64,000 bases of DNA from Candidatus Helarchaeota archaeon (GTDB taxonomy: Archaea; Asgardarchaeota; Lokiarchaeia; Helarchaeales; RDOG01): assembly GCA_019058315.1 (NCBI GenBank), contig JAHPZH010000002.1:320001-384000 (forward strand), given 5' to 3'. Of the stretch, positions 45,617 to 62,706 are shown piece by piece. The notes under the pieces were generated by a model. That model was not told the origin of the DNA. It saw only the letters and a list, made by a program, of their open reading frames with translations, and searched no databases. A program made the translations under genes and the position numbers. Every line of letters begins with the position of its first letter. The stretch's first letter is position 1.

Positions 45617-46828
45617 TTATATTATAAGTTCATTAACTAATTCTACAATGTCCTTAAATACTAATTTTGATCCGCTTTCTTTAATTGCATCCATTAGATT
45701 ACGTTGACAGAATGGACATGATGAAACTAAAATTTCCGCACCAGTGTCTTCAGCTTCTTTTATTCGGTCGATTGCAGTTTCTAAAGCCATATCTTTAAAT
45801 GCAGCCTTCACACCACCACCAGCACCGCAGCACCAAGCATTTTCCTGATTTCTTACCATTTCAACAAGCTTCAGTCCAGGAATGGCTTTTAAAATCCTTC
45901 TAGGCTGTTTATAAAGACCTCTACGCCTCGGCCTTGAATCGGACATTATACCTCTACCGATATGACAAGGGTCGTGGTAAGTAACCGTCTTATTTAATTC
46001 CTTAAGTTTTATCTTTCCATCTTTAATCAGTCTGTCTAGAAACTGTGTTATATGTATCAATTCAATATCTAATTTCTCTCCCAATAACTCAGGATAGTCA
46101 ACTAAAATAGTTCGATAACAACCTGCACAAGAAAAAATAAGCTTTTTTATACCTGCTTTTTTTATAGCTTCCATATTCTTTTTTGCTAATTCCATTGCTT
46201 GCTTTTGCATACCAGTTCGTAATAACGGACTTCCACAACAAATTTCTTCAGAACCAAGGATACGAAAGGGAGTATTTGTTTTATTTAAAATTTCTACAGT
46301 ATCTTTTGCAAGCTCTTTTTCTCTATAAGCCGATGTACATCCCACAAAATATGCAAGTTCTGCATTTGGGTCAATTTTTACATCTTTTGATAGCCAATCA
46401 AATCGTTGTCCATGTGGGTCTCCATAAGGGTTATTATTTTCAGCAGTACTCTTTGCAAAACCTAGATGTTGGGGCATAGGTCCCCATTCCATTTCTGCTA
46501 GCTTAGTCCTTAATGCTTCAATTATAGCAACATTATCCATACCTTTGAATTCTTTACAAGTAAGTGCACATGCACCGCAAGTGGTGCAAGCCCAAACAAG
46601 CTCTTTTAATGCTTCTGATGGTTCTTTTATTTCACCCTCGATGATAGCTCTCGCAATTTCCATACGTCCAACTGCATAATATGAGATAAAACCAAATTTT
46701 TTACCGCTTGGGCAACATTCTAGCCATTCATCTAGTGTCCAGTAATTAAATTGGTTACAGCCCATACAATGACCGCATGTTATAACATCATCTCTATATT
46801 CATCTAATTTTTTAACTTTTATTGTCAT
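45617..46828 (-). CDS. HdrD/GlcF-like Fe-S oxidoreductase with two CCG domains
   Basis: CTTCGACALTC, FVGC, ICCG, SCAGC, YHDPC, CCGAGGG, SCPFC. Confidence 0.9.
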   Translation of the reverse strand: MTIKVKKLDEYRDDVITCGHCMGCNQFNYWTLDEWLECCPSGKKFGFISYYAVGRMEIARAIIEGEIKEPSEALKELVWACTTCGACALTCKEFKGMDNVAIIEALRTKLAEMEWGPMPQHLGFAKSTAENNNPYGDPHGQRFDWLSKDVKIDPNAELAYFVGCTSAYREKELAKDTVEILNKTNTPFRILGSEEICCGSPLLRTGMQKQAMELAKKNMEAIKKAGIKKLIFSCAGCYRTILVDYPELLGEKLDIELIHITQFLDRLIKDGKIKLKELNKTVTYHDPCHIGRGIMSDSRPRRRGLYKQPRRILKAIPGLKLVEMVRNQENAWCCGAGGGVKAAFKDMALETAIDRIKEAEDTGAEILVSSCPFCQRNLMDAIKESGSKLVFKDIVELVNELII

Positions 46829-46829
46829 T

Positions 46830-48290
46830 TTACCAAGTCAACTCCTTTTCCTCTGGAAATACTTTTCCTGGGTTCATTATTTCATTTGGATCAATTAACT
46901 TCATGATCTTGTGCCAAATTTCACCGTAAGTTCCTAATTCGTTGATTATCAATTTCATAGGATTTAAGAACGGTCTGAACCAGCCATAGATATGATATTC
47001 CTTAGTAATTAATTTTTTCAAAACGGCGTAATGGAAATTCTTGACCATTTCAACAGATTTCGGGTCTGCGCTAGTATAAGGGACTTCTGCCTCATAGTAG
47101 CAAGCTTGACCCCAAAAACCCGCAATAGGGGCATTTAATAAATCGACATTTTTTGCTTCGTATCCTGCTTTCACTCCAAGTTCTTTCATCATAGGTACAT
47201 ATTTGGGATATTGATATAAAGGACCTAAGAAAGCTAAAGCATGATAAGAACCCTCTCTTAAGAACCCAAAGATGTTACGAGGATATTTAAATTCCCTTGC
47301 TTGTTCTTCTGGAAGGGGAATGGCATTTGCCTTGTTTAAAGGCGATGATGTTTTATTTATAATCTCAAGTGCTAATTCTTTTTTGGCATCAACGATTTTT
47401 TGATGCCCTTCAATTACAATTGGAATTGTCCATTCTGGAAATGATCCACGCATCGACTCTAGGTCTTTTCTTGATCTTGCAAACAATTTAATTATGGTAT
47501 ATTGTGGTAAAATCCACAAAAGTGCTGGTATTTTATTCCACATGAGTTGTGGGACGGGTTTGATAGCTTCTTCGATTGAATTAAAACCAATACCTATAAA
47601 GGCTTCTGCTTCAGGGAGTGGGTAGAGTTTAACAGTCATTTCAGTGCATATTGCCATACTACCAGGCATACTTTGAAAGAGTCCTACAAAATCTGGGCTA
47701 CATGTGAATCTAAAGTGAGGTGGTGCATTAGGAAAAGCTACGGCACCTGTCTTCAAAATTCTGCCATCTGGAAGGACGAACTCAGCAGAACAGACGTGAT
47801 CAATACCATCTCCAGCATTTGTATGATAGACACCTCTTAATAAGTAGTTTGCAAGCAATGAGCCTGTTGCAGGAGCACCGGGAATACATGGACGCATACC
47901 ATATTTCCGAACTGCGATAGCCACTTGTCCATGAGTCACTCCTGGCTGAATGGTGGCTGTCATCATATCATGATTTATTTCAAGAATCTTGTTCATTCTT
48001 CTCATATCAAGCAAAATACTTCCATCTTTAGCTGGTGTACATAATCCTCTTACGTTTACACCGCGACTTAAAGGAACTACAGGAATCTTATTTTGATTAG
48101 CGAATTTTACTATTTCTTGAATTTCTTCTGTTGAAATTGGACGTACTATGACCGCAGGACGCTTTGGTACTACAAAAGGCCAATGCTGATCTCTGCTATA
48201 AGGTATTAACACTGCTTCTTCGTCTGAAACATGTTGATCTCCGACAATTTTTACTAAATTATCAACTAAACTTGCCAAATTTATACACAA
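46830..48290 (-). CDS. FAD-binding oxidoreductase (GlcD/D-lactate dehydrogenase family)
   Basis: YSRD…P..IVRP.STEEIQ…LDMRRMNKI…QPGVT…DPNEIMNPGK. Confidence 0.88.
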   Translation of the reverse strand: MCINLASLVDNLVKIVGDQHVSDEEAVLIPYSRDQHWPFVVPKRPAVIVRPISTEEIQEIVKFANQNKIPVVPLSRGVNVRGLCTPAKDGSILLDMRRMNKILEINHDMMTATIQPGVTHGQVAIAVRKYGMRPCIPGAPATGSLLANYLLRGVYHTNAGDGIDHVCSAEFVLPDGRILKTGAVAFPNAPPHFRFTCSPDFVGLFQSMPGSMAICTEMTVKLYPLPEAEAFIGIGFNSIEEAIKPVPQLMWNKIPALLWILPQYTIIKLFARSRKDLESMRGSFPEWTIPIVIEGHQKIVDAKKELALEIINKTSSPLNKANAIPLPEEQAREFKYPRNIFGFLREGSYHALAFLGPLYQYPKYVPMMKELGVKAGYEAKNVDLLNAPIAGFWGQACYYEAEVPYTSADPKSVEMVKNFHYAVLKKLITKEYHIYGWFRPFLNPMKLIINELGTYGEIWHKIMKLIDPNEIMNPGKVFPEEKELTW

Positions 48291-48382: not shown

Positions 48383-48401
48383 AATGTCGAAATTCGATAT
48401 T
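48383..48401. promoter_or_regulatory. Palindromic operator copy 1 (AATGTC-N7-GATATT)
   Basis: Lies between the divergent glcD-hdrD operon and padR; same arms and spacing as the sites at 53289 and 56261. Confidence 0.55.
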
Positions 48402-48422
48402 AATAATATAAGATACTAATGA

Positions 48423-49256
48423 GTGTTAATTATGTTTAAAAAAAAGCACAAAAGAGCACCAGTCAATAATTTTCAACTACAAATCCTAAGATTATTAAGA
48501 TATAGACCCATGTATGGGTATGAAATTTTAAATATATTCGAACAAAAAGGGTGGAGACCAAGTACAGGGACGTTATACCCTGCCTTAAAACAATTGGAAA
48601 AAAAAGAATTTATAGAATCATATAAAACTGAAGATCAAATACGTGGAGCCAACCCACGCACTAATTATAAATTAACAAAAAAAGGATTCGATTATGTCCA
48701 GACTACTTTTAATATTGATATAAGGCATCCTGAGCTCTATATTGAACCATTTATAGAATTACAGAATATGTATCTCAATGAAATATTTCGAGCCAAAGCT
48801 CTAGTGCTTGATTTTTTAAATTTCATTAATCCAGAAAATGTATTTAAAACCATGGCGGCTGGAAAAGTTCCTTCAAATATTGAATTTAAGAAAGTATACG
48901 ATTTTAACCTTGAGAATCCAAAATCTAAACTTTATGATTATATCGTATTATTTCTACCATTTTCATTTACTTTTCAAGATTTTTATAGTAATCCTGCTCG
49001 AAACCACCTAAAAGTTTTAAAAGATGTTAAATTAGCATTGAAACCAGATGGAGGCATTTTAATTATAGATATTGAATGGACTAAACATGCTCTTGTAGAT
49101 GTTTTAAGTTTTATGGCTACGGGTGAAGTAATGGAAATGGCTTACACAGAAGAACAAATAAAAACACTTTTAACAAATTCTGGATATGTTAACATTAATA
49201 TATTGAAGAAACAACGAGGAATAATAATAATATTGGCTGATAATAAATCTAATTAA
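48423..49256 (+). CDS. PadR-family transcriptional regulator with C-terminal methyltransferase-like domain
   Basis: IL.LL…PMYGYEI…PSTGTLYPALKQLE…Y.LT.KG; C-terminal YDYIV…LKPDGGILIID. Confidence 0.88.
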   Translation: MLIMFKKKHKRAPVNNFQLQILRLLRYRPMYGYEILNIFEQKGWRPSTGTLYPALKQLEKKEFIESYKTEDQIRGANPRTNYKLTKKGFDYVQTTFNIDIRHPELYIEPFIELQNMYLNEIFRAKALVLDFLNFINPENVFKTMAAGKVPSNIEFKKVYDFNLENPKSKLYDYIVLFLPFSFTFQDFYSNPARNHLKVLKDVKLALKPDGGILIIDIEWTKHALVDVLSFMATGEVMEMAYTEEQIKTLLTNSGYVNINILKKQRGIIIILADNKSN

Positions 49257-49294
49257 AAGATATTTTGAATTTCATTTACCGAGAAGATTGAAAT

Positions 49295-50677
49295 ATGTTT
49301 CAAAAAAAACAAACCATATTAAAAAAGATTCTAAAAAAAATTGGAAAGTTTTTTAAGTGGTTTGGTGTTTTTCTCATTCTTCTTTTTTCCATGTTATTGG
49401 GTATGATAATTTATTGGGTCATAAGACCAAATACTTCTGAAGTAAATTATACTCTCAGCACGGAATATTGGGTAGCAATGGGGTTGAAAATAGAAGGCCA
49501 TTCACATAACTCCAATACTGATATGATATATTGGAATGGTTCATTTTACCTAGTTCACCAAAATTCTCCTTATCATCTTACAAGTAAGCAAAGTAAATTG
49601 ATAATTTGGCGTTCTTCTGATGCGATAAGCTGGGATTTAGTTAAAATCATTTATTATCAAGAAGATATTAGAGATCCAAAGTTCGCTGTTATCGGTTCAA
49701 GACTCTATATGTATGCTCTCGTTAATTTCGGAGAGTTTATCGCGTCACCTGAAACCACTGTTTATACATATACTGAAGATGGGCAATCGTGGAAAGATTT
49801 CAAATTTATTGAGCCATACGGATGGTTATTCTGGAGGCCTAAAACCAGAGATAATAACACCTGGTACGTCCCAGCTTATTGGCGGGGACATGGAGCTTCA
49901 ATTTTATTGAATTCTACCGATGGTATGCATTGGGACTTTGTCTCACCAATATATTATGGTGAAAGAAATGATGAGACTGATATAGAATTTTTTCCAGATG
50001 GTAGAATGCTCTCAACTGGACGTTTAGAAGGTGAATCAGAATTTTTGTTTGGAGACAATAGAGGATCAACTGTCATTGCCGTTTCAAAACATCCTTATAA
50101 AAGTTGGACTTACATAAAATCCCAACTTACACGTTTAGATGGTCCTTGCCTCTTCGAATATGCAGGTAAAATTTTTGCGGTTGGGAGATATGAGACTCAA
50201 AATGATCCAGTATTTCATCAACAAGGAAGCTTTTTTAATCGAAAAAGAACGTCGTTATTCCTTGTTTCAGAAATTGGACTCGTTCACTTAGCAGATTTAC
50301 CTAGTGCAGGTGATACTTCATATGCAGGAGTTGTTATAAGGGGTGATCAAGCCTATATTTCCTATTATAGTAGCCCTATAAACCAAGATTGGCCATGGAT
50401 TCTAGGAGTAATCAGTGAAAGCGCAATTCGAATGGCAAAGATTGATCTCGATCGTTTAACATCTCTTGCGGAAATGAAACTATTGCAAGGAGTCAATAAT
50501 GATAAGAATATCGAACTTCCTTGGCAAGAATACATTGTCTTTTCCTTTATTATAATCATACAAAATTCAATTATCTATCTTCTAAAGAGATACAATCCTC
50601 TCTCTAAAAGAAAAAAGAAAATTAAACAAAAAATTACTCATATTCAAGTAATATTACTAATGGAATATATTAAATAA
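49295..50677 (+). CDS. Membrane-anchored Asp-box beta-propeller (sialidase/glycosidase-like)
   Basis: SSDAISW, TEDGQSW, STDGMHW, DIRDPK, GDTSYAG; TM at both ends. Confidence 0.75.
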   Translation: MFQKKQTILKKILKKIGKFFKWFGVFLILLFSMLLGMIIYWVIRPNTSEVNYTLSTEYWVAMGLKIEGHSHNSNTDMIYWNGSFYLVHQNSPYHLTSKQSKLIIWRSSDAISWDLVKIIYYQEDIRDPKFAVIGSRLYMYALVNFGEFIASPETTVYTYTEDGQSWKDFKFIEPYGWLFWRPKTRDNNTWYVPAYWRGHGASILLNSTDGMHWDFVSPIYYGERNDETDIEFFPDGRMLSTGRLEGESEFLFGDNRGSTVIAVSKHPYKSWTYIKSQLTRLDGPCLFEYAGKIFAVGRYETQNDPVFHQQGSFFNRKRTSLFLVSEIGLVHLADLPSAGDTSYAGVVIRGDQAYISYYSSPINQDWPWILGVISESAIRMAKIDLDRLTSLAEMKLLQGVNNDKNIELPWQEYIVFSFIIIIQNSIIYLLKRYNPLSKRKKKIKQKITHIQVILLMEYIK

Positions 50678-50693
50678 AAGAAGTCGAGACTGA

Positions 50694-50804
50694 TTATTCA
50701 AGCGAAAAAGTCACCAACTTATTTTGAGTTAAATCTAAAGAACCTCTTTTCTCAACATACCCAATTCCAGTTTTAAATAGGACTATTTTGCGTATAATTA
50801 ACAT
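50694..50804 (-). pseudogene. 36-codon fragment resembling the N-terminus of DUF4139/DUF4140-type proteins
   Basis: MLIIRKIVLFKTGIGYVEKRG then an early stop. Confidence 0.45.
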
Positions 50805-50916
50805 TCGAATCAATCTTCTTCTTAAAAAATTTATAAAATAAATCATTTTTCTATTGTTTTTCAGATGAATAAAATATATAATATACCAATAATAATAATA
50901 ATCTAGGGCGAAAATT

Positions 50917-51714
50917 ATGCAAATCAATTTCGAATATGGGGTTTTTTTCACGCTGAATAAAATAACTGGCTTTTCAATTTTTACAGATCCGTTGAATCTT
51001 TTCCAATTGCTAATATTATTGTCTGCAATGATATTTGGGATTTATGTTCTACATATTATATGGAAAGAATATAAAAGAACGAATAGTACCAATTCATTAA
51101 TCTTCTACGTTGCCGGAGTAATTATGTTAATTTCCGGTATTAGCATAACAACTGCAAAATTATGTTATGCAACGTTCGGGTGGCCTGAAATTGGAAGAAT
51201 ATTTGTTGGAATAAGCTGGGGCATAGCTATTTCAGGAATGATCTTTTATAATATATTTGCTTTACGTTCCACATTTCCAAAAAGGGTTAATGTATTAACT
51301 TCAATTATTATAGCAATATCATTTCTTTGTATATTAGTTCTGAATTATGCTATTTATATAGAACCGCCATTAGTATACACTGATCCAATTGATTTTGAAG
51401 ATCGATTCAGCTTAATAGTTTTATTGGTAATTTATTGCACTTTTATACCTGTTTCATTACTTCCTCCTTTGGTTTTTTCCTATTATTCAATAAAAATAAG
51501 AAATGAAGATAGAGCAAAAAGTAATTTGGCAATTTTCTTTGTAATAGGACTTCTTTGTATAGCTCTGGGTGTAATAAATGAGATAGGGCTTATTTATATC
51601 TTTATATTAGAAGTTATTTTCCGGTTCTTTATCTTGGCATATCCTATAGTGTTTTATTTTATCTTTGCTATGCCTGATTGGTTCAGAGAAAAACTTGGAT
51701 TAAAAAAAGAGTAA
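50917..51714 (+). CDS. Multi-pass (~7 TM) membrane protein
   Basis: About seven hydrophobic segments, C-terminal MPDWF. Confidence 0.75.
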   Translation: MQINFEYGVFFTLNKITGFSIFTDPLNLFQLLILLSAMIFGIYVLHIIWKEYKRTNSTNSLIFYVAGVIMLISGISITTAKLCYATFGWPEIGRIFVGISWGIAISGMIFYNIFALRSTFPKRVNVLTSIIIAISFLCILVLNYAIYIEPPLVYTDPIDFEDRFSLIVLLVIYCTFIPVSLLPPLVFSYYSIKIRNEDRAKSNLAIFFVIGLLCIALGVINEIGLIYIFILEVIFRFFILAYPIVFYFIFAMPDWFREKLGLKKE

Positions 51715-51892
51715 CCCTACTAAGCAGCAGAATATATCAAATTTTCTAAATTATTTTCTTATACATGACTTAGATATTCTTGATTCATTATTAGTTTTGC
51801 TAATGTCTATCATCGAATTTTCTGATATCTTTTTATTCGCTTTTTTTTTTGTTTATTAAAAAAAGGTTTAAAAATTAAAAGATGTGAACTAA

Positions 51893-53185
51893 ATGACAGA
51901 AAAGGTAGATCATTATCCTATGTGGAAAAATTTAGGTCTTGATCTTGAAAAACATGATCAATTATTAGCAATATTGCCTGATATTTACAAAAAAATTTAT
52001 ATCGAGACTCAAAAAAATCGTCCCGACATGAGTTTCTGGGACTTTGTTGTCGGAGATATACATGGAATTAGAATCAAAGAATTAAAAGAAGCAAAAGAAA
52101 AAGGTCAAAAAATTCTAGGTACATTTTGCCTTTATGTTCCAGATGAATTAATATTTGCAGTTAATGCAATTTCGGTAGGGCTTTGTGGGGGAACGAATTT
52201 CTCTAATTATGCTGCAGAAGGAATAGTTCCACCAAACCTTTGTCCATTAATAAAATCTGCCTTAGGTTTTGCTCTAGGAAATATTTGTCCCTATTTCAAT
52301 TCTCTAAACTTATTGGTTGGAGAAACAACATGTGATGGAAAGAAAAAAGCTTGGGAAGTTATGGAAAAATATTTCCCTTGTGAGTTATATGTTGTGGAAA
52401 TTCCCCAATGCAAAGACCGACCACAAGCAAGAGAGCATTGGATTGCAGAACTAAAAGCATTAGTTAAAAAGTTGGAAAATCTGACTAGTAATAAACTTAC
52501 GTTTGAGAATCTAAAAGCGGCAATGGAAAAAATAGAAAATAAAAGAAATCAAATTAGAAGAGTTTATCAAGCAAGAAAAGCCGATCCTCCTCCTATATCT
52601 GGAAAAGACGCCCTTTTAGTATCACAAGTTGCGTTCTATGATGATCCCGATAGAGAAATTCAAATGGTTGGGAAGCTTGCAGATGAATTGGAAAAGAGAA
52701 TAAGAGATGGGGTTGGTGTAGTTAAAAAAAGTACTAAAAGAATTTTGATTTCTGGAACTCCTATGGCGATACCAAACTGGAAATTACATCAAATAATAGA
52801 AACTAGTGGGGCTATTGTGGTTTGCGAAGAAACTTGCACTGGAACAAGATATTTTGACGCTAAACTGGAAATTACTGGAAAAACGTTAGAAGGATTGATC
52901 GGAAATTTGGCTGAGAGGTATTTAAATATTAATTGTGCTTGTTTCACTCCTAATGAAGCAAGAACTGAGGATATAAAAAGACTTGTAAAAGAATACAAAG
53001 CCGATGGTGTAGTTCTATATTCATTATCATTCTGTCAGCCTTATATAATCGAATCAATCGCCATTGAAAAAAAATTAAAAGAAATAGGAATCCCAACAAT
53101 CTCAATTGAAACCGATTACTCAAGCGAAGATGAGGGACAATTAAAGACCCGAATAGAAGCATTCCTAGAAATGATTAAAAAATAA
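51893..53185 (+). CDS. Double-cubane cluster protein (DCCP; 2-hydroxyacyl-CoA dehydratase family)
   Basis: MW..LGLDLEKHD, IHG.RI.EL, GTFC, LCGG, LCPLIKS, CPYF, ETTCDGKKK, EETCTG, INCACF, FCQPY. Confidence 0.88.
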   Translation: MTEKVDHYPMWKNLGLDLEKHDQLLAILPDIYKKIYIETQKNRPDMSFWDFVVGDIHGIRIKELKEAKEKGQKILGTFCLYVPDELIFAVNAISVGLCGGTNFSNYAAEGIVPPNLCPLIKSALGFALGNICPYFNSLNLLVGETTCDGKKKAWEVMEKYFPCELYVVEIPQCKDRPQAREHWIAELKALVKKLENLTSNKLTFENLKAAMEKIENKRNQIRRVYQARKADPPPISGKDALLVSQVAFYDDPDREIQMVGKLADELEKRIRDGVGVVKKSTKRILISGTPMAIPNWKLHQIIETSGAIVVCEETCTGTRYFDAKLEITGKTLEGLIGNLAERYLNINCACFTPNEARTEDIKRLVKEYKADGVVLYSLSFCQPYIIESIAIEKKLKEIGIPTISIETDYSSEDEGQLKTRIEAFLEMIKK

Positions 53186-53288
53186 AATTATTATTTTTTT
53201 TCTAATTTTTCTAATATTTCTTGTTCAGTAAAAACAAATTTATCTGGAATCTTATTTTTCTGTTTCCTATTTTTTAGATTATTGTGTT

Positions 53289-53309
53289 TTATATCTTAAT
53301 TTGACATAA
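53289..53309. promoter_or_regulatory. Palindromic operator copy 2 (TTATATC-N7-GACATAA)
   Basis: About 110 bp upstream of the first unknown paralogue. Confidence 0.6.
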
Positions 53310-53414
53310 ATTTTTAAAAATTTAGAAATAATTCAAGAATTGTTAATAATTTGAGTTATATCTAAAATTTACTAATATTTTAAAATTCTAAATTATTCAA
53401 AATCAATATTTAAG

Positions 53415-54665
53415 GTGTTTTTATTGGCTTGGCATGAAAAGGTAAAAGAAATAAAAGAAAGAAGACTTAAGGAATTGGAAGGTGTTGATATAAAAAGTAT
53501 ACTAGCCGCTGGTGATAAAGAAATTTATAATACAATCCCAGATAGTGTATTTTCCAAACCTTATCTACCTTTATGTACACAAGTTTGGAAATTTTTTAAG
53601 TATATGGATTGGCATTACTTTGATAGTATCTATGCCGATTTTGCAGAAGCATGCCTTGATGAACTAGTTTTGCGGATGGAGGAAGCAATTGAGGTCTCTA
53701 AAGCTTACTCAGAAGGTAAATTGAAAGATCCTAAGAAAACAATATGTTATTGGATTTTACCACCAGTTCTAGTTGTCAGGGCAGATTTAATACAGGGTGC
53801 GATCAGGCTTGTGTATGGAAACTCGGCTGATATAACCTTCATGGGTGTCTCAGACTTCGATAAAGAAGTTCTTTTTGGAATAAACTTTCATTTCGAAAAT
53901 GGGCTTGCAACAAACTATTGGTATATGAAACCTGGTGATGAATTTCTCGATAAACGGCATATGAAACTGGGAACTAAACTTAAAGATTTGCCAAAAGAAA
54001 TACCCGACTTTCATGAAGCAGCAGGTAAAATCCGTGATATTTTATTAGATGTAAGAAATATTCAAGATCCTAATCATGCTCAATCTGCATACAATGTATG
54101 TTTATTTTTAATGTCAGCAGGTCCAAATAATGGTGTTTTTGTAAGTAATTTCGATGAATACAGCTTCATGTGGGAGGGAATTAACAGTTATAAATTGAAT
54201 GAGGAATGTAAAACTGACATTTTAAAAGACACTATCCAATTTTATGAGCCATGGCCACCAATTTTCCTTCAGCTTACCCGTTTAAAAAGAGATCTCTGGA
54301 TAAAACGGATTTCAGGTCTTCTAATTGACAAACAACTCTATTGTCAATACGTATTGAACAAGAAACTCTTTGATATTTTACCAGTAAAAGAAGTACTTGA
54401 AAAAGATTGGGAAGAAGGTGTTCCTACTCCCGCTCAAACTATTGCCCATGAATTCTCAGATTATAAAAATTGGCGATTTGGTTATAAATTACCAGAAGGA
54501 CCTCGTATTCACTATGAAGATTTCGGTTTATCTCTTAAAGAAGCTATGGGAGGTTTTTTAACAGATATAACTTGGCAAACTGAACCACCCTTTACAAGAG
54601 ATAATTTAATTTCCATTGGTCATGGATTAAATACAAAAATTATAAAAAAGGATGAAGAGACTTAA
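53415..54665 (+). CDS. Uncharacterised soluble protein, paralogue A (probable start TTG 53424)
   Basis: Aligns end to end with 54918..56084; no family recognised. Confidence 0.85.
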   Translation: MFLLAWHEKVKEIKERRLKELEGVDIKSILAAGDKEIYNTIPDSVFSKPYLPLCTQVWKFFKYMDWHYFDSIYADFAEACLDELVLRMEEAIEVSKAYSEGKLKDPKKTICYWILPPVLVVRADLIQGAIRLVYGNSADITFMGVSDFDKEVLFGINFHFENGLATNYWYMKPGDEFLDKRHMKLGTKLKDLPKEIPDFHEAAGKIRDILLDVRNIQDPNHAQSAYNVCLFLMSAGPNNGVFVSNFDEYSFMWEGINSYKLNEECKTDILKDTIQFYEPWPPIFLQLTRLKRDLWIKRISGLLIDKQLYCQYVLNKKLFDILPVKEVLEKDWEEGVPTPAQTIAHEFSDYKNWRFGYKLPEGPRIHYEDFGLSLKEAMGGFLTDITWQTEPPFTRDNLISIGHGLNTKIIKKDEET

Positions 54666-54917
54666 TTTTTTTCAGGTATTATTCTGTAATAATCCTTCTA
54701 GCATATATCACAGAATGTAAAATTTATTAATAGAAATTATAATGATAATAAAATTCTTAGGATGAAAAAATATATTTTTTATATAGAGTTTAAATAATAA
54801 GTTTTATTAAATTCAAAAAAACACTATTTAATCAAAATAAAAAATCGAAAGCCACTCACATAAAAAATATAAATTTTAATTAGAATACATAAAAAAAATA
54901 AAAAGGAGATAGTATAA

Positions 54918-56084
54918 TTGACTCATACTTATGGAGAGATACCAGATGACGTTGTGACGAAACGTTTCGTTCCCTTGGCAGAAAATTTATATTCATTATT
55001 TCAGGAACTAGGTTGGGATTATTTCTATGAAGAATTTACAGATAAAGGCACTCAATTTTTCGAGAAAGTCCCAGATTTTTTAAGTGATAAATTTCAAAGG
55101 GCAGTAACGACAGCTAAAAAGGTTATAGACGGATCAATACCAACACCTGAGAATGTATTTACAACATTCTTCTTTCCCCCTGTGTTATATGTACGAACTG
55201 ATCTACAAATGGGCAGTACTAAACTTATCTATGGAAATTCGACTGACATTACATTTATTGTCATGAATGATATGAATTATAATTTGGAACTCTTAATAAA
55301 TGCACACATGGAGGATGGAATTCCAGTAGATTATTGGTTCATTAAAAGTGGTGACGAAGTCTTTGATAGAAGACATATGAAGCTTGGTTTTAGACTTGCA
55401 GAGATTCCTTCAAAAACAAAGGACTTTTTCAAAAGTGGGCTTCGTATATTGGATATTTTAAGAGATGTTAGAAATGAACGAAGTCCACAATGGTCCGATT
55501 CTGCATATTCCATGGCAATGAATTGGGCTGGTGGATCAACCAACATGTTCATGGAGTCATCAAGTTACAATGTACTCGGACAACTTTGGGATGGTGTAAA
55601 CGCTAAAAAGGAATATGGTATGCCCGATATGTACTTTGGATACATCCCTTACCCTCCGATATTGAAGATGCTACTATCAATGGGACGTCCAGAGTTCATG
55701 ATAAGAATTGAAGGTTTGCTAAGTCATAATCGCTTATTTATTCATGCATATGAACCTGAACACTATGAATTTATGAAATTCATCTCACCAGAAGCATTAG
55801 AATGGAGCTTTAGGAAAATGAAGGAAGAAGGTGTGCCAACTCCTAGACAGTCTTTAGGTTGCCATGTACCTAAATTAAAAGATAAAAAAACATATAAAAA
55901 TGAAGAGTTCGGATTTGTATACCCCGAAGGAACAAGAATAATGCCTTACGAATGGGGCCTAACAGATGATGAAGCATTCAGCGGAATTTATACCGATATT
56001 TCACATGAAACTCCGTCGGAACCATTTTATGGGAAGGAACATGTAGTCAATATAGGCGTCGGTAAAGACGTGAGACCAATTTAA
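54918..56084 (+). CDS. Uncharacterised soluble protein, paralogue B
   Basis: Shares PPVL.VR.DL..G…L.YGNS.DITF, YW…GDE..D.RHMKLG and EEGVPTP.Q with paralogue A. Confidence 0.85.
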   Translation: MTHTYGEIPDDVVTKRFVPLAENLYSLFQELGWDYFYEEFTDKGTQFFEKVPDFLSDKFQRAVTTAKKVIDGSIPTPENVFTTFFFPPVLYVRTDLQMGSTKLIYGNSTDITFIVMNDMNYNLELLINAHMEDGIPVDYWFIKSGDEVFDRRHMKLGFRLAEIPSKTKDFFKSGLRILDILRDVRNERSPQWSDSAYSMAMNWAGGSTNMFMESSSYNVLGQLWDGVNAKKEYGMPDMYFGYIPYPPILKMLLSMGRPEFMIRIEGLLSHNRLFIHAYEPEHYEFMKFISPEALEWSFRKMKEEGVPTPRQSLGCHVPKLKDKKTYKNEEFGFVYPEGTRIMPYEWGLTDDEAFSGIYTDISHETPSEPFYGKEHVVNIGVGKDVRPI

Positions 56085-56260
56085 TTAATTCTATATTTTA
56101 ACAACCAATATTTTTTCTTTTAATTATTTAATTCCTTGGAAGAGGACTTAGTATTTCTTTATTAGGAAAAAGATCTTTTTATTTACTTATCTATTTATTA
56201 AAAAATTTAATAAAATAATAGCTATTTTCTCTTGTCCTAGTTTTTTATCATTTATTTTTA

Positions 56261-56281
56261 TTATGTCTATATTTGACATAA
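56261..56281. promoter_or_regulatory. Palindromic operator copy 3 (perfect TTATGTC-N7-GACATAA)
   Basis: About 130 bp upstream of mcrA. Confidence 0.65.
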
Positions 56282-56413
56282 ACATTTTTGAAAAAAAAAT
56301 CGTCTAAAGATTAACCAAGATTTAGTTTAATAGTCGGAATTTTCATTTATTATTGTTAAAAAATAATGAAGTTAGAGCAATTTATCTAATTTAAATAATT
56401 TTAAGGCGATTGT

Positions 56414-58213
56414 ATGTCAAAAGAAGGAAAAAAATCTGAGAAAACAATTCGAGAGATAGATTATGGCTATGATCTTTTCTCAATAGCAAAAAAATTTCTT
56501 CCAGTTGAACAGGAACGTGTTGTTTATAAGACAATGCAAAAGGTCTTTGGCGTAAATCCATTAGCTCCTAGAGACAACTCTATGTATCGCAGAGGTGGAT
56601 TTAAACAAAATAAAAGAAAAGTAGAATTCATGAAAGCTGCTAAAAAAATTGCCAAAGAGAGAGGAATTCCCATGTATAATCGTGCAGTCGGAATTCCACT
56701 TGGACAAAGAGCGTTAGAGCCATATCTAATATCTGGTACAGATACTTTTGTTGATTTTGATGATGTTCATCATGTTAATAACGCTGCCATCCAACAGATG
56801 GTAGATGATATTAAAAGAACCGTAATTATCAATCTTGATATTCCACATCGTGTTCTCCAAGTTAGAGCAGGAAAGGAGATTACACCTGAAACTGTAAATC
56901 TTTACTTAGAAACTATTCAGCACACCATGGCAGGAGGTGCTGTAGCCCAAGAGCATATGGCTGAAATAAATCCTGGATTAACATTTGATGGATATGCGAA
57001 GGTAATCACAGGAGATGATGAAATACGGGACATGCTCGACAAGAGATTTTTATTAGATATTGATAATTTATTCCATCCAAGTCGGGTTGAACAATTAAAA
57101 AGAGCAATTGGTAGCACAATGTTTTTACTTGCCCGAGTTCCAACCATAGCGGTTCGGATGGCAGATGGTGGAGTTGTATATCGATGGGCTGCAATGCAAT
57201 CTACTATGGCATTTGTTGCAAGTTACCGATTAACAGGAGAAAGCATTATCTCAGATTTAGCTTATGCTGCAAAAAGTGCACAGCTTGTCCAGATGGGTGA
57301 AAGAACGTGGTTTGCGAGAGCAAGGAGTCAAAATGAAATAGGTGGAATACCATTTGGCTATATGAATGACTTTATGCAATCAGATTCTCGACTTCCAGCA
57401 AAACCGTTCCTAAGGGTCATACATGAAGATGGCGTTGATGTGGCAAGAGAATATATAGGTGCATTAACAAAAGGCCTTGGTGCTATTGGGGCAGTTTTGA
57501 CTGAACAATATTGGTTAAGTTTTTATATGTCTGGAGGTATTGGATTTGCCACCACAGTTGCAAGCGCAGGATATTGTGGTAATGTATTAGAAGAATTCAC
57601 TGACCAAACTACGGAAATTCTTGCAAAATATGGCAAGGTGCTTAAAGTCAAACCAAATTGGGATACAGTCCGTTGGGTTATTGATCTTATTATACAATAT
57701 TGCATGGAGACCTATGAAAAATATCCATCATTGACCGAATATCATTGGGGTGGTGCACATAGAATATCAGTAATTGGGAACCTTTCAGCGACTGTAGCTT
57801 CTTTATTAACAGGCTCTTCAACTTTAGGCTGTATGGCTATGCATTATTCAATAGGTTTGTTAATGAAGGAAGGTTGGTTAAGAACGGGTTGGGCAGGTCA
57901 AGAAGTCCAAGATCACGTGGGTATCGCTTATCTTTGTAGTCCCAGAATAGAGGAAGGAGTCTTTCCAGAACTTAGAGGCATGAATTATCCTGTTGCAAGC
58001 TTTACTGCTGGTCATGCTAGCGGATATATTGGCGCTGCGGCAGGAACTGCTCTTCATAGGGGTCAACCTTGGTCAACTTCTCCTATAGTCAAAGCCGCAT
58101 TTGCAGATCCTCATTTAATATTTGATTTCGCAGAACCAAGGCTAGCAATTGCTAAAGCGTGTTTGAGAGAATTCAAACCCGCAGGTGAACGAGATCTAAT
58201 TATTCCAACATAA
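56414..58213 (+). CDS. mcrA: Alkyl/methyl-coenzyme M reductase alpha subunit, divergent ACR type
   Basis: GIPLGQR, HHVNNAAIQQM.DDI.RT, GGAVAQEHM, YMSGGIGF, ELRG.NYP, AFAD, PAGER. Confidence 0.97.
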   Translation: MSKEGKKSEKTIREIDYGYDLFSIAKKFLPVEQERVVYKTMQKVFGVNPLAPRDNSMYRRGGFKQNKRKVEFMKAAKKIAKERGIPMYNRAVGIPLGQRALEPYLISGTDTFVDFDDVHHVNNAAIQQMVDDIKRTVIINLDIPHRVLQVRAGKEITPETVNLYLETIQHTMAGGAVAQEHMAEINPGLTFDGYAKVITGDDEIRDMLDKRFLLDIDNLFHPSRVEQLKRAIGSTMFLLARVPTIAVRMADGGVVYRWAAMQSTMAFVASYRLTGESIISDLAYAAKSAQLVQMGERTWFARARSQNEIGGIPFGYMNDFMQSDSRLPAKPFLRVIHEDGVDVAREYIGALTKGLGAIGAVLTEQYWLSFYMSGGIGFATTVASAGYCGNVLEEFTDQTTEILAKYGKVLKVKPNWDTVRWVIDLIIQYCMETYEKYPSLTEYHWGGAHRISVIGNLSATVASLLTGSSTLGCMAMHYSIGLLMKEGWLRTGWAGQEVQDHVGIAYLCSPRIEEGVFPELRGMNYPVASFTAGHASGYIGAAAGTALHRGQPWSTSPIVKAAFADPHLIFDFAEPRLAIAKACLREFKPAGERDLIIPT

Positions 58214-58294
58214 TTTCAAAGTTTATTTAATCATTTTAATTTATTTAGCATAGAAATAACCTAGAAATGTGATTTAAAAAAAAGATGATAAAAA

Positions 58295-59896
58295 ATGGAA
58301 GATTTTATTGTTGTTAAAAACCTATTTAAAGAGTTTGAAAGAGGCTCCCCTGCTTATATTGATATAAGCTTTACAATTAAAGAAGGAGCCTCATTTGGTA
58401 TTTTGGGTAAGTCAGGATCTGGAAAAAGTGCTTTAATGCATGCACTTCGTGGCACTCCAGAATATAAACCGACGAAAGGAACAGTCATATATAGGATTTC
58501 TGCATGTCCTAATGATGATTGTCTTTATATCGATTACCCCTCATTAGCAAATTCAAGTTGCCCAAATTGCAACTCAACTTTGGAATTGAAAGAATTCGAT
58601 TTTTGGAAAGAGGCAGAAACTAACTCTCCCCTTTTTCGCGCACTTTATAATCGAATATCAATTATGTTGCAACGTACGTTCGCACTTTACGGAGAACTAC
58701 CCGTATTAGCAAATCTAACTGAGGCTCTAGAAAAAGCAGGCGTTCCTGAAAGACGAAGAGAGGGTAAAGCAGCATTATTACTATCAAAAGTTAATTTAAC
58801 ACACCGTTCAATGCATATTGCCCGTGACTTATCAGGAGGAGAAAAACAACGTGTAGTTTTCGCTATGAGTCTGGCGAAAAATCCACTTCTTTTCCTTGCA
58901 GATGAACCCACTGGAACACTTGATGTAATAACAAGTAAAAAAATCCATAAAACAATGAAGACGGCTGTTAATAAGGATAAACTTACGCTTATTGTGACTT
59001 CACATTGGCCACTTGCCGTTGAAGAATTAACATCAGAAGCAATATTATTAGAGGATGGAAAAATTACGATGCATGCTGATTCTTCTGAAGTGGCTAAGAA
59101 GTTTTTAAGTCAAGTAGAAAAAGTAGAGAGGACAAAAAGAGAGTTTAAAAATAAAATTATGAAAGTTGAGAATTGTATTAAACATTATTACACATTTGAT
59201 AGGGGAATTATTAGAGCTGTAGATGGTGTCTCTCTTGATATTTATGAAAATGAGATTTTTGGGCTTGTTGGTCTTTCAGGTTCTGGAAAAACAACTCTGT
59301 CCCTAATGATGTGTGGTTTGAAAGATATTACAATGGGAAAAATCTGGGTCAATATAGGGGATGAATGGGTCGATATGAGCATCCCAGGTCCATATGAACG
59401 TGGTAGAGCTACAAATTATATGGACATTCTTCACCAAGAATATGCTCTCTATCCTCATTTGATAGTTCTACAAAATCTAACTGGGGCAATAGAATATCCG
59501 ATTCCAGAGGAAATGAAAACCAAAAAAGCTTATGACTCATTAAAGGCAGTAAATTTCACAAATGATGAAATTGAAAATATTCTCTATAAATTTCCAGAAC
59601 AAATTAGTGAAGGAGAACGACACCGAGTTGCCATTTCTCGAATTTTAATAAAAGAACCGAAAATTTTGTTTTTTGATGAGGCAACTGGAACTGCAGACCC
59701 ATTAACTCGGATGGAAATAGTACGTTCAATAAAAAAATCCCGTGATGACCTTAATCAAACATATGTCATAATAAGTCATGATATTGATTTTGTCTTAGCT
59801 GCTTGTGATAGAGCAGCATTAATGAAAGATGGTCACGTTTTAAAAGTTGGAGAACCCGCGGAGATCATAGAATATTTTAAAGAGGTAGAGAAATAA
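58295..59896 (+). CDS. atwA: MCR system component A2 (double ABC ATPase with Zn site)
   Basis: GKSGSGKS, C.{4}C…CPNC, RISIMLQRTFALY, HIARDLSGGEKQR, WVDM..PG…RGRAT. Confidence 0.95.
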   Translation: MEDFIVVKNLFKEFERGSPAYIDISFTIKEGASFGILGKSGSGKSALMHALRGTPEYKPTKGTVIYRISACPNDDCLYIDYPSLANSSCPNCNSTLELKEFDFWKEAETNSPLFRALYNRISIMLQRTFALYGELPVLANLTEALEKAGVPERRREGKAALLLSKVNLTHRSMHIARDLSGGEKQRVVFAMSLAKNPLLFLADEPTGTLDVITSKKIHKTMKTAVNKDKLTLIVTSHWPLAVEELTSEAILLEDGKITMHADSSEVAKKFLSQVEKVERTKREFKNKIMKVENCIKHYYTFDRGIIRAVDGVSLDIYENEIFGLVGLSGSGKTTLSLMMCGLKDITMGKIWVNIGDEWVDMSIPGPYERGRATNYMDILHQEYALYPHLIVLQNLTGAIEYPIPEEMKTKKAYDSLKAVNFTNDEIENILYKFPEQISEGERHRVAISRILIKEPKILFFDEATGTADPLTRMEIVRSIKKSRDDLNQTYVIISHDIDFVLAACDRAALMKDGHVLKVGEPAEIIEYFKEVEK

Positions 59897-59897
59897 A

Positions 59898-60395
59898 ATG
59901 AAAGATTTAGATTCAGAACTGGAATATGAGTATAAAGAACCTTCAGGAAAATGGTGGGAAGAACTCGAATGGATTTTTCCTCCAGAAGAAGACCGAGAAC
60001 CCACATGTTATGAAATGGTTCAGAGTTTTATTATAAATAAAGTTGTTCCTTGTGCTAAGTGTGTGGAATTATCGGGACGGTTTTTACCTCGTGTAATTAC
60101 CATTGAAGCTGAACACCCGATTCGAGGAAATGAGTACTCACGAATAATTATAAGTCCAGTCGATGTAGCAGACGGAGCTCCAACAGTAGAACCCGACCTC
60201 TTAATCCATATTAAATATTACGACTTGTTAAGAGTATTAGATGGAGAATTAGATATAATGAAACCATTATTTTTTGGAGAAGGCTGGTTAATCGGTAATA
60301 CAACAACTGGTTTTGATTTGAAAGATTTAGTCGATGTAGCAAATGGAAAAGAATTAGTTGAGAGACCTAAAGCTTGGCCAATAGGTCACCCATAG
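59898..60395 (+). CDS. SCP2-like (sterol/lipid carrier) domain protein inside the ACR operon
   Basis: V.DG…EPDLLIHIKYYDLLRVLDGELDIMKPLFFGEGWLIGN matches the SCP2 C-terminal pattern also seen at 8877..9275. Confidence 0.62.
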   Translation: MKDLDSELEYEYKEPSGKWWEELEWIFPPEEDREPTCYEMVQSFIINKVVPCAKCVELSGRFLPRVITIEAEHPIRGNEYSRIIISPVDVADGAPTVEPDLLIHIKYYDLLRVLDGELDIMKPLFFGEGWLIGNTTTGFDLKDLVDVANGKELVERPKAWPIGHP

Positions 60396-60406
60396 GAGAG
60401 TTTAAT

Positions 60407-61801
60407 ATGATTAAAGATAAAGTTGACGTTTATAATGATGAGGGTGAATGCATAGGAGAAGATTTACCCATAAAAGCATTCTCTCCCTTATATAATCCGT
60501 ATATGGTAAAAGTTTATAATATGATCAAGAGAACCGCATTTATTTCACTAGAAAAATTAGAACAAAATATACGTAAAGGTCGTTTTGGTGAAATGACAAC
60601 CTTACGTCAGGACGAAATACAGATGCCTCAATTTGAACGGAAATGGAAGCTTGTTGATATGGGGCCTGAAATTGCGGAAAAAATGAATAAAATCATTTCT
60701 ATGGACGAAGGATTTAATGGTAAGGATGATGGTTCGAATGTAGATCTGATAGCGGGTGGTAAAATGCTAAGAGTATCCTTACCACAAAGAAGAATAGATA
60801 TTGCAGCTTCCATTGCCCCACTTTATACAATAACTGGGACTGCACTCGCTCAATCTCTTATTGATCTTCTTGATTTAAACCCAATGAATGATATTGATGG
60901 TTGTAATATAGTAAAAACGGCAATTTTTGGTCGTTTTCCACAAACCAGAGAATTTGGATCTTCATGTCCTATTTTTGCTTTTTGTAAACCTCCTCAATTG
61001 GAAGAAGGCATAGGAACTCTGTTCCGTGGTCTCATGATAAACCATATAGTTGCTTTGTCCAATTTTCGGACTTTCGATGCAGTAGCATTAGCAACTTTAT
61101 TAGAACAAGCAGGACAAACAGAGATGGGAAATGCTATAGGGTGGTATGAGCGCTATAATTTATTGACAACCGCATATCAAGGATTTAATGGAAATAACTT
61201 AGTGTTAGATTTAATTAAAGAATACGGTACTGATGGGACAGTTAGTGATGTTGTACATGGTCTAATTGAAAGATCTTTAAATGATGGGGTTATATATCCT
61301 AAAGGAGATAAATTCCCACACACTCAACCTTCTGGATATAAAATTTATTCAACTAAAGATTATCCGCTTTGGAATGCATATTCATGTGCTGGGTTGTTAG
61401 CTGCTGTTTGTGTAAATGTAGGTGCATCTCGTGCTGCACAAGGTTGTGGCGCAGTAATGTCTAGTTTTAGTGATATTCTTTCATTTGAAACTGGGGGTCT
61501 TCCAGATCCAGATGCTGGAAGGATTTTTGGGACTGCACTCGGTTTTACATTTTATACACATTCAATTTATGGTGGGGCTGGACCTGGGGCTTTTACGATG
61601 GACCATGTTATAACTCGCCATACTAGTGGCTTTTTTACACCATGTGTTGCTGCAGCGATGTGTCTAGATGCAGGAACCCAAATCTTTACTCCAAAATTGA
61701 CTTCTGGAAATTATTTTACGCTTCGAAAAGAAATACCACTGCTCACTGATGTTGTTGTTAAGACCACTGAGGCTGCAAAGGAGATAAAAAATAAATTTTA
61801 A
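60407..61801 (+). CDS. mcrB: Alkyl/methyl-coenzyme M reductase beta subunit
   Basis: DKVDVY, SPLYNP, KRT, EMGNAIG.YER, AYQG.N.NNLV, WNAY, HSIYGGAGPG, HVITRH, LDAGTQ; start ATG 60407 after AGGAG. Confidence 0.97.
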   Translation: MIKDKVDVYNDEGECIGEDLPIKAFSPLYNPYMVKVYNMIKRTAFISLEKLEQNIRKGRFGEMTTLRQDEIQMPQFERKWKLVDMGPEIAEKMNKIISMDEGFNGKDDGSNVDLIAGGKMLRVSLPQRRIDIAASIAPLYTITGTALAQSLIDLLDLNPMNDIDGCNIVKTAIFGRFPQTREFGSSCPIFAFCKPPQLEEGIGTLFRGLMINHIVALSNFRTFDAVALATLLEQAGQTEMGNAIGWYERYNLLTTAYQGFNGNNLVLDLIKEYGTDGTVSDVVHGLIERSLNDGVIYPKGDKFPHTQPSGYKIYSTKDYPLWNAYSCAGLLAAVCVNVGASRAAQGCGAVMSSFSDILSFETGGLPDPDAGRIFGTALGFTFYTHSIYGGAGPGAFTMDHVITRHTSGFFTPCVAAAMCLDAGTQIFTPKLTSGNYFTLRKEIPLLTDVVVKTTEAAKEIKNKF

Positions 61802-61811
61802 GGTGAAAATT

Positions 61812-62687
61812 ATGGAAGAAGATGTTTTTGCAGTTGCAGATATTGAAAAATTCAAGAGAAAGAAAAAGAAAGTAGAAAGAAAAGAAGTAGAGAAAAAAGT
61901 TGAAGTTATAGAGGGTAAATATGAACCTCAATTTTACCCAGGACAAGGTCCGGTATCGGAAAGAAGGCGAAAATTATTAAATAAAAATAAAAAGTTATTG
62001 AAATTACGAAGTATTCCAGATGATGATGTGGTTAAATTACTCGGACATCGTCTACCGGGCAGTTTATATCGTAGTATTCATCCCCCTCTAGACGAATTAA
62101 TCCAAGAATATGATCCTATTAAAATGCTTGTAAAACCTACCCCAGGAGCACGTGCAGGTGATCGTGTCCGCTTTGTCCAATTCACTGATAGTTTTTGGAG
62201 ACCTCCTTTTGCCCCTTGGTTAAGAGCAAGGTATTATTTCAATCGTCTACGAGGTGTGGATACCGTTATTTACTCGGGACGTGAAATTTTAGAAATGAGG
62301 GAACGTGATCTAGAGGCAGCCACAAAAATACTAATTGAAACAGAACTTTTCGATCCAGCTAGAACAGCTCTTAGAGGAATTACTGTTCATGGTAGTTCAT
62401 TGAGATTAGATACTGATGGATTAATGTTTGACGCTCGACGTCGATATGTATTGGATAAAGACGTTAATGAAGTTGTTTATATTAAAGATATGCATGCAAA
62501 GATGTTAGATAAACCTATCCCGGTAGGAAGACCTTTCAACGAAGATGAATTAGTTGAGTTTGACGTGACTTATAGATGGGATGCTTCGATGTATAAATCA
62601 CGTACTGAAATTTTAACAGTAATTAATAGAATTGCAAAAGGTAGATTATTAGCAGGTTTTAGACCAGAATTAGTAAATGATTTTTAA
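61812..62687 (+). CDS. mcrG: Alkyl/methyl-coenzyme M reductase gamma subunit with charged N-terminal extension
   Basis: YEPQFYPG, LGHR.PG, HPPL, GDRVR.VQF.DS, RGVD, SGR, RG.TVHG.SLRLD; ATG 61812 after AGGTGA (the ORF track uses GTG 61803). Confidence 0.96.
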   Translation: MEEDVFAVADIEKFKRKKKKVERKEVEKKVEVIEGKYEPQFYPGQGPVSERRRKLLNKNKKLLKLRSIPDDDVVKLLGHRLPGSLYRSIHPPLDELIQEYDPIKMLVKPTPGARAGDRVRFVQFTDSFWRPPFAPWLRARYYFNRLRGVDTVIYSGREILEMRERDLEAATKILIETELFDPARTALRGITVHGSSLRLDTDGLMFDARRRYVLDKDVNEVVYIKDMHAKMLDKPIPVGRPFNEDELVEFDVTYRWDASMYKSRTEILTVINRIAKGRLLAGFRPELVNDF

Positions 62688-62706
62688 TAAAAAGGATTGA
62701 AAATTT

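Follow-up and report, generated by a model that had tools for sequence, protein, structure and literature searches.

This analysis concerns a window of 64,000 nucleotides (nt) from a Candidatus Helarchaeota archaeon (G000:C5:320001-384000) and, within it, the promoters of the operon of an alkane-activating enzyme, alkyl-coenzyme M (CoM) reductase (ACR), and of its neighbours. The genome (G000) is 5.79 Mb long, has 30% GC content and is assembled in 12 contigs. A reverse-strand pair, glcD and hdrD, stands back to back with padR, which encodes a PadR-methyltransferase-fold fusion. After padR come a beta-propeller-like gene of 460 aa, an unknown gene of 265 aa, an HGD-D/DCCP gene, the paralogues parA and parB, and the ACR operon with its first gene acrA. 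Three similar intergenic sites, s1, s2 and s3, lie upstream of padR/glcD, parA and acrA, respectively. The original prediction for this DNA had read them, together with a weaker site at 51802, as copies of one palindromic operator of a PadR-controlled regulon, and all four sequences are found exactly where it placed them.

Sites s2 and s3 (Table 1) are closely alike. s3 is centred at 56271, 143 nt upstream of the acrA ATG, and is the single occurrence of ATGTC-N7-GACAT in the genome. s2 is centred at 53299, ~125 nt upstream of the likely parA start. The sites have 19 of 22 nt in common, and the block reads TTATRTC-TWAWTTT-GACATAAA. In the whole genome only s2 and s3 match this block with 0-1 mismatch; no sequence matches with 2 mismatches, and seven match with 3. 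Both promoters have an upstream box of the form TCCTA(G)TTTTTTA and a second small palindrome downstream of the dyad, and these flanking boxes stand at matching spacing around s2 and s3. The box upstream of s3 is a candidate TATA region. The s2/s3 resemblance exceeds chance. Judged from the sequence, s2 and s3 are a genuine shared cis-regulatory element specific to this ACR cluster, and their dyad is likely a PadR-type operator at acrA and parA.

Table 1. Coordinates of genes, sites and repeats (window positions unless a contig or locus is named).
Feature	Position	Strand	Sequence or remark
hdrD-like CCG protein gene	45617-46828	-	Divergent from padR
glcD-like FAD protein gene	46830-48290	-	Divergent from padR; glcD and hdrD span 45617-48290
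s1	48383-48401		AATGTCGAAATTCGATATT; 19-nt near-palindrome AATG-TCGAAATTCGA-TATT
Inner palindrome of s1	48387-48397		TCGAA-A-TTCGA, perfect, 11 nt
CGAA(A)-W-(T)TTCG palindrome upstream of glcD, three genomes	L021:11882-11892; L022:1316-1326; window 48387-48397		
padR (PadR-methyltransferase-fold fusion)	48423/48432-49256	+	Pfam, orthologue alignment, AlphaFold model and fold matches
Weaker site	51802-51820		AATGTC-N7-GAATTT; upstream of the HGD-D/DCCP gene
HGD-D/DCCP gene	51893-53185		Upstream of parA
Upstream box of s2	53265-53277	+	TCCTATTTTTTAG; counterpart of 56235-56248; T-rich centre ~25.5 nt upstream of the s2 dyad centre
s2	53289-53310		TTATATC-TTAATTT-GACATAA(A); one G>A change in the left half-site; 53289-53309 without the bracketed A
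Second palindrome, s2 side	53310-53321		ATTTTTAAAAAT
parA (unknown ~400-aa family)	53415/53424-54665	+	Likely start TTG 53424
parB (parA paralogue)	54918-56084	+	34% identity to parA
Upstream box of s3	56235-56248	+	TCCTAGTTTTTTAT; common to the s2 promoter; T-rich centre ~26.5 nt upstream of the s3 dyad centre
s3	56261-56282		TTATGTC-TATATTT-GACATAA(A); perfect 7+7 inverted repeat, ATGT-N9-ACAT; 56261-56281 without the bracketed A
Second palindrome, s3 side	56284-56295		ATTTTT-G-AAAAA; directly after s3
ACR operon	56414-63570	+	acrA, A2-like ABC ATPase, 165-aa gene, acrB, acrG, 287-aa gene
Three-dyad array of another PadR gene	G000:C1:540513-540559 (L139:3513-3559)		ATGT..ACATGT..ACATGT..ACAT; 15-nt period

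Genome-wide backgrounds used a crude open reading frame (ORF) mask, not a curated annotation, as the gene map; intergenic DNA amounts to 659 kb. The original prediction had proposed WATRTC-N7-GAYATW as the regulon consensus and had named a background frequency genome-wide as the outcome that would speak against it. The window has 3 matches against 0.19 expected, for a consensus fitted to these very sites. Genome-wide the consensus is at background, with 26 matches (6 non-coding) against 16-33 (0-7) across spacers of 3-12 nt. Further nulls, independent of the fitted consensus, allowed any half-site and any spacer of 0-12 nt. Of all neighbouring intergenic pairs, 2.1% have a G/C-containing 6-Nk-6 palindrome in common as closely as s2 and s3 at that resolution, and 8-16% as loosely as s1 does with s2/s3. 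When six consecutive intergenic regions are taken at a time, 45 of the 2,643 such windows (1.7%) hold three sites as good as those observed. The literature motif ATGT-N9-ACAT, which was not chosen post hoc, is present with at most 1 mismatch in 11% of intergenic regions, and at least three of six neighbouring regions carry it in 55 of the 2,643 windows (2.1%).

Comparison of whole sites, spacer included, separates the s2/s3 pair from this background. The pair ranks 42 of 13,326 neighbouring pairs, and most of the better-ranked pairs come from tRNA or rRNA pieces and from true repeats. In shuffled intergenic regions only 1 of 11,840 pairs equals its score (~1e-4 per pair; ~1e-3 for the 15 pairs of the island). 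The idea of a shared palindromic element thus held for s2 and s3, is not established for s1 and failed for the 51802 site. The last two were scored against a motif built from s2 and s3 only (TATRTC-N7-GACATA). s1 has 3 mismatches to it, equalled in 22% of intergenic regions of 100-200 nt and in 30% of all regions, and its chance figure varies from 0.07 to 0.22 with the motif definition. The 51802 site has 4 mismatches, a quality reached or exceeded in 81% of intergenic regions; it was rejected as an operator because it is indistinguishable from background noise.

The history of the locus was read from two relatives, G005 and G006. In both, acrA is directly divergent from glcD-hdrD (G005:C94 9884-14673, L021; G006:C335 2-4124, L022) and the 8-kb block from padR to parB is absent; this block is therefore lineage-specific in the present genome. 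The G005 orthologue of parA (59% identity) is part of the ACR operon and follows acrA directly; a shared element would therefore maintain co-regulation of what are now two transcription units. G006 has an ORF of ~392 aa directly after acrA, known by size and position alone. The rearrangement is probably old, because parA and parB are only 34% identical. Given this divergence, and because the intergenic DNA of G005 and G006 aligns only as short blocks, the 19/22 match has probably been held by selection. No ATGT-N8-10-ACAT dyad, even with 1 mismatch, was found in the orthologous acrA promoters of G005 and G006 or at the other two ACR operons of this genome, which is weak evidence fitting a lineage-specific circuit. 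The G005 and G006 acrA promoters keep a [GA][AT]CATAAA box, like the right arm of the dyad, without an inverted partner. In run X11, a contig of low depth connects 53216 with 56244 through 37 other letters and so skips s2, parA and parB; a relative may have the DCCP gene directly upstream of the acrA promoter.

PadR-type regulators were said in the original prediction to bind ATGT/ACAT inverted repeats, and published operators agree. They are ATGT/ACAT dyads with spacers of 8-10 nt (PMC3506622); the dyad is TGT-N8-ACA for Bacillus subtilis PadR and TGT-N10-ACA for the archaeal hsRosR (PMC7145548). s3 reads TGT-N9-ACA, between the two. Its half-sites are a perfect ATGT/ACAT, those of s2 are ATAT/ACAT and those of s1 ATGT/ATAT, and the N9 spacing is common to all three. 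Perfect intergenic ATGT-N9-ACAT dyads number 14 genome-wide, against 5-12 for other spacers. Three of the 14 overlap in the divergent promoter of another PadR gene (173 aa; C1:539909-540430, - strand), where they form an array with ATGTC/GACAT half-sites and the same N9 spacing. The middle dyad encloses a TATA-like spacer, as in s3. The array serves as an internal control for the favoured reading given below, and its layout makes it look like a textbook case of PadR operators, here in an Asgard archaeon. Opposite the 173-aa PadR gene stand two unknown genes of 247 and 276 aa without a Pfam match.

The element resembles PadR/LmrR operators in its inverted TGT/ACA dyad, which in that class is read by a dimeric winged helix, and the N-terminal domain of the fusion superposes on the B. 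subtilis PadR-operator complex (PDB 5x11). It differs in a spacer of 9 instead of 8 nt and in its target, which is an archaeal ACR promoter and not a detoxification or efflux gene. The archaeal family member hsRosR of Halobacterium salinarum (PadR/MarR-type) has a TGT-Nx-ACA motif and gives the N-terminal domain its closest structural match. Unlike the fusion it has a single domain, and it has an N10 spacer and an oxidative-stress regulon.

The padR product was predicted to be a PadR winged helix fused to a methyltransferase-fold domain, encoded from 48423, and the domain assignment is confirmed. Residues ~11-99 form the winged helix, which matches PF03551 at 60.8 bits (cut-off 27) and PadR structures in the PDB down to 5.6e-09. 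Residues ~99-275 form an O-methyltransferase-like Rossmann domain. The AlphaFold model has a pLDDT of 78.5. ATG 48432 is a likelier start than GTG 48423 because orthologues P0001, P0002 and P0004 begin there (MFKK...). The N-terminus superposes on DNA-bound hsRosR (6qh0) with Z 13.7 and a root-mean-square deviation (rmsd) of 2.2 over 83 residues at 30% identity, and on B. subtilis PadR (BsPadR, 5x11) with Z 13.4 and rmsd 2.7 over 83 residues. Across 12 homologues, with identities down to 30%, the segment TGTLYPAL of the recognition helix hardly varies: T48, L51, Y52, P53, A54 and L55 are invariant or almost so. The fusion has an intact DNA-reading domain.

The C-terminal residues 99-275 superpose on O-methyltransferases with Z 13.5-14.5 and rmsd 3.2-3.4 over 153-162 residues. 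The COMT-type (family 2) enzymes match the fusion in whole architecture and C-terminal fold (Foldseek E ~1e-10; 8bic, Z 14.5, rmsd 3.4 over 162 residues) at 9-16% identity. Their N-terminal winged helix serves dimerisation, whereas that of the fusion is a true PadR DNA-binding domain (PF03551). Their glycine-rich S-adenosylmethionine (SAM) loop is replaced: SAM motif I (D/E-x-G-x-G-x-G) is absent, and the corresponding strand-loop reads LDFLNFINPE, with invariant D130 and N133 and no glycine. No Pfam methyltransferase family matched the fusion. The degenerate SAM loop makes a ligand-binding rather than a catalytic role plausible for this domain.

Orthologues P0001-P0008 are 64-93% identical to the fusion. 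No full-length orthologue was found in 60 relatives searched, and a search of 160 other genomes of the class did not find the C-terminal domain, with none found in G005 or G006. A profile search of genome contigs with the C-terminal domain gave no match. The full-alignment profile caught only unrelated PadR genes through a generic helix-turn-helix match; near these PadR loci, in Hadarchaeum and others, there are only ABC ATPases, and ACR, parA and glcD genes are missing. Two tandem full-length paralogues (45-46% identity) lie at G000:C1:108303-109985 (L006:8303-9985), where they stand last in an operon that also contains an FGGY kinase gene and two genes for membrane-protein-like products.

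Site s1 is centred between the two divergent genes, 40 nt before the padR ATG (48432) and 102 nt before the glcD start. The original prediction had made it an autoregulatory site that also governs the HdrD module; this use of s1 was not sustained, since the match is statistically weak and the centre is kept in relatives lacking padR. The right half of s1 reads ATA, and the family core is ACA. In G005 and G006 a CGAAA-W-TTTCG palindrome like the s1 centre precedes glcD by 98-121 nt; the distance here is 102 nt. Cores of the CGAA..TTCG type are rare, with 4 + 3 non-coding copies in the 659 kb. The conserved part of s1 is thus the centre that a dyad would treat as spacer, and the arms are lineage-specific. 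This is the opposite of what is expected of a PadR operator and suggests an older glcD-hdrD promoter element used by another factor. That s1 is such an element with a CGAA..TTCG core is the more likely reading of the aligned promoters, and the glcD-upstream palindrome is a candidate site for another regulator of the glcD-hdrD pair. s1 may or may not also serve padR autoregulation. It keeps one intact ATGTC half-site, adjoins the TATA-like TAATATAA and is among only 15 intergenic sites with at most 1 mismatch from ATGTC-N7-GACAT.

Two distant sites resemble s1. At G000:C5:847215-847231 (L144:4215-4231) the sequence ATGTCGAATTTCGCCAT is close to s1, centre included, and TGTCGAAWTTCG has only two non-coding copies in the genome, one in s1 and one there. 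The gene 47 nt downstream of this site encodes an alkyl-sulfatase-like metallo-beta-lactamase and itself follows a GNAT-SCP2 gene. At G000:C3:654225-654242 (L140:3225-3242), ATGTC-N8-GATAT stands ~43 nt upstream of a 283-aa PadR gene beside a RuBisCO-like gene; in its position and half-sites it resembles s1 at padR.

The reading we favour, with moderate confidence, is that s2 and s3 are one element that co-regulates acrA and parA as the operator of a PadR-type dimer, with the adjacent fusion as leading candidate for the binder. The element comprises 7-bp inverted TTATRTC/GACATAA arms around an AT-rich 7-nt spacer, set within a longer promoter layout of T-run box and T5/A5 palindrome. In shape (TGT-N9-ACA) it corresponds to the operators of PadR/MarR-type dimers. 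acrA and parA, one operon in relatives and now separate units, would stay co-regulated through the copied element. A PadR-type dimer would bind the arms at both genes. Inside its footprint would lie the TATA-like spacer or, alternatively, a start site ~26 nt past the T-rich box. The bound dimer would block recruitment of TATA-binding protein and transcription factor B (TBP/TFB) or of polymerase, so that both units are repressed, and ligand binding by the regulator would end the repression. Archaeal repressors such as MDR1, LrpA and Phr bind over the TATA box or the start and block recruitment of TBP/TFB or RNA polymerase. The proposed geometry is like theirs, with the dyad enclosing a TATA-like spacer or lying ~26 nt downstream of a T-rich box; those repressors belong to other protein families, and the promoter elements at s2 and s3 are putative. 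The identity of the binder, repression as the mode of action, and the ligand are what we infer. The fusion is a plausible binder by its sequence and position and leads among the 13 PadR paralogues. A more specific proposal, which we consider doubtful, is that a lineage-specific PadR repressor with a degenerate O-methyltransferase-fold sensor switches the ACR operon and the relocated parA on or off when it senses a small molecule, for which an alkyl-thioether or alkyl-CoM, an acyl-CoA, and SAM or S-adenosylhomocysteine are candidates.

Several points weigh against the favoured reading. The 659 kb hold 454 perfect 7+7 palindromes whose arms each have at least 2 G/C (~1 per 1.45 kb), so that the symmetry of s3 has no significance by itself. 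Non-coding DNA shows no enrichment of the half-site GACATAA, and sites with at most 1 mismatch from the s2/s3 motif number 9 at spacer 7 against 4-11 at other spacers, which is no excess. The resemblance of s2 and s3 could be that of inherited promoter sequence instead of an operator. With 13 PadR genes in the genome, the neighbouring PadR as binder is only a guess. The recognition helix of the fusion has Thr in place of His38, which contacts DNA in BsPadR, and also in place of its Gln40, and the 173-aa PadR keeps the His. The tandem paralogues on C1 have neighbours unrelated to parA or parB, and the promoter of their operon has no dyad.

Four other explanations were weighed. The full model of the original prediction, in which the adjacent fusion binds s1 for autoregulation and glcD-hdrD control, binds s2 and s3, and weakly binds the DCCP site, with its C-terminal domain as ligand sensor, is improbable in our view. 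It draws on the position of padR, 5-8 kb from s2 and s3 in an island absent from relatives that also lack the dyad. Its further support is local to s1, whose intact ATGTC half-site lies 40 nt before the likely leaderless padR start and beside TAATATAA, and which is one of only 15 intergenic sites so close to ATGTC-N7-GACAT; the distant 283-aa PadR gene on C3 also has ATGTC-N8-GATAT at a similar position. Against this, s1 matches only with 3 mismatches, as 22% of similar intergenic regions do, breaks the ACA core with ATA, and shares its conserved centre with the glcD promoters of G005 and G006, which lack padR; moreover, the DCCP site is noise and the consensus lies at background genome-wide. 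Equally unlikely, in our estimate, is that promoter DNA was copied when parA left the operon, so that s2 and s3 carry homologous core signals (TATA-like spacer, initiator and T/A tracts) and serve no dedicated repressor. The similarity does reach past the dyad to the upstream box and the downstream T5/A5 tract, both spacers look TATA-like, the [GA][AT]CATAAA box upstream of acrA in both relatives is similar to the right arm, and s3 symmetry by itself is not significant. However, the block is no general promoter consensus, since no other copy exists with at most 2 mismatches and its half-site is not enriched, and both copies keep 6-7 bp of PadR-type inverted symmetry where the relatives keep the right-hand box only.

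Chance resemblance between AT-rich palindromes in a 30% GC genome is very improbable. The background frequency of the consensus and a triple-level p of only ~0.02 speak for it, and about one pair of s2/s3 quality is expected somewhere in the whole genome; that sole pair would, however, have had to fall exactly on acrA and on the orthologue of its operon partner (~1e-4; ~1e-3 for the island). Just as remote is action at the RNA level, through hairpin and T-run terminators for DCCP and parB or through structures in 5' untranslated regions. Both s2 and s3 do come after the end of a gene and have a T5 run behind them, and the predicted fold has two adjacent hairpins. The stems are weak, however (-5.9 and -7.6 kcal/mol; z -1.0 and -2.3), the s2 mismatch disrupts its stem, and there was no Rfam match at E<=1; an intrinsic terminator or structured RNA was rejected on the weak stems and the missing Rfam match. 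Archaeal termination relies on oligo-T and not on hairpins, which also counts against this reading.

Expansion of the regulon beyond s2 and s3 yields leads only, since other sites with at most 1 mismatch precede unrelated genes and their counts are at background. These sites include one before an alkyl-sulfatase-like gene and one before a BcrAD/BadFG ATPase gene. A site at G000:C11:81938-81956 (TATGTT-N7-GACATA) departs from the s2/s3 motif by one mismatch and contains a perfect ATGT-N9-ACAT; it stands 82 nt upstream of one of the five BcrAD/BadFG-type ATPase genes of the genome. BcrAD/BadFG proteins form the class of activator partners for HGD-D/DCCP proteins, of which 51893-53185 encodes one, and the C11 site is only a lead.

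No description of a regulator or promoter element of any ACR operon was found in the literature searched, in agreement with the original prediction. If true, the lineage-specific PadR circuit would be the first case in which transcriptional control of any ACR is defined. parA appears to illustrate how a gene can leave an operon and yet stay co-regulated through a copied promoter element. The organisms are uncultured, and a 22-bp putative operator with a short list of candidate regulators is an in-vitro entry point. A ligand-responsive PadR would point to the physiological substrate or an intermediate of this ACR, and binding work could show which signal turns on archaeal alkane oxidation.

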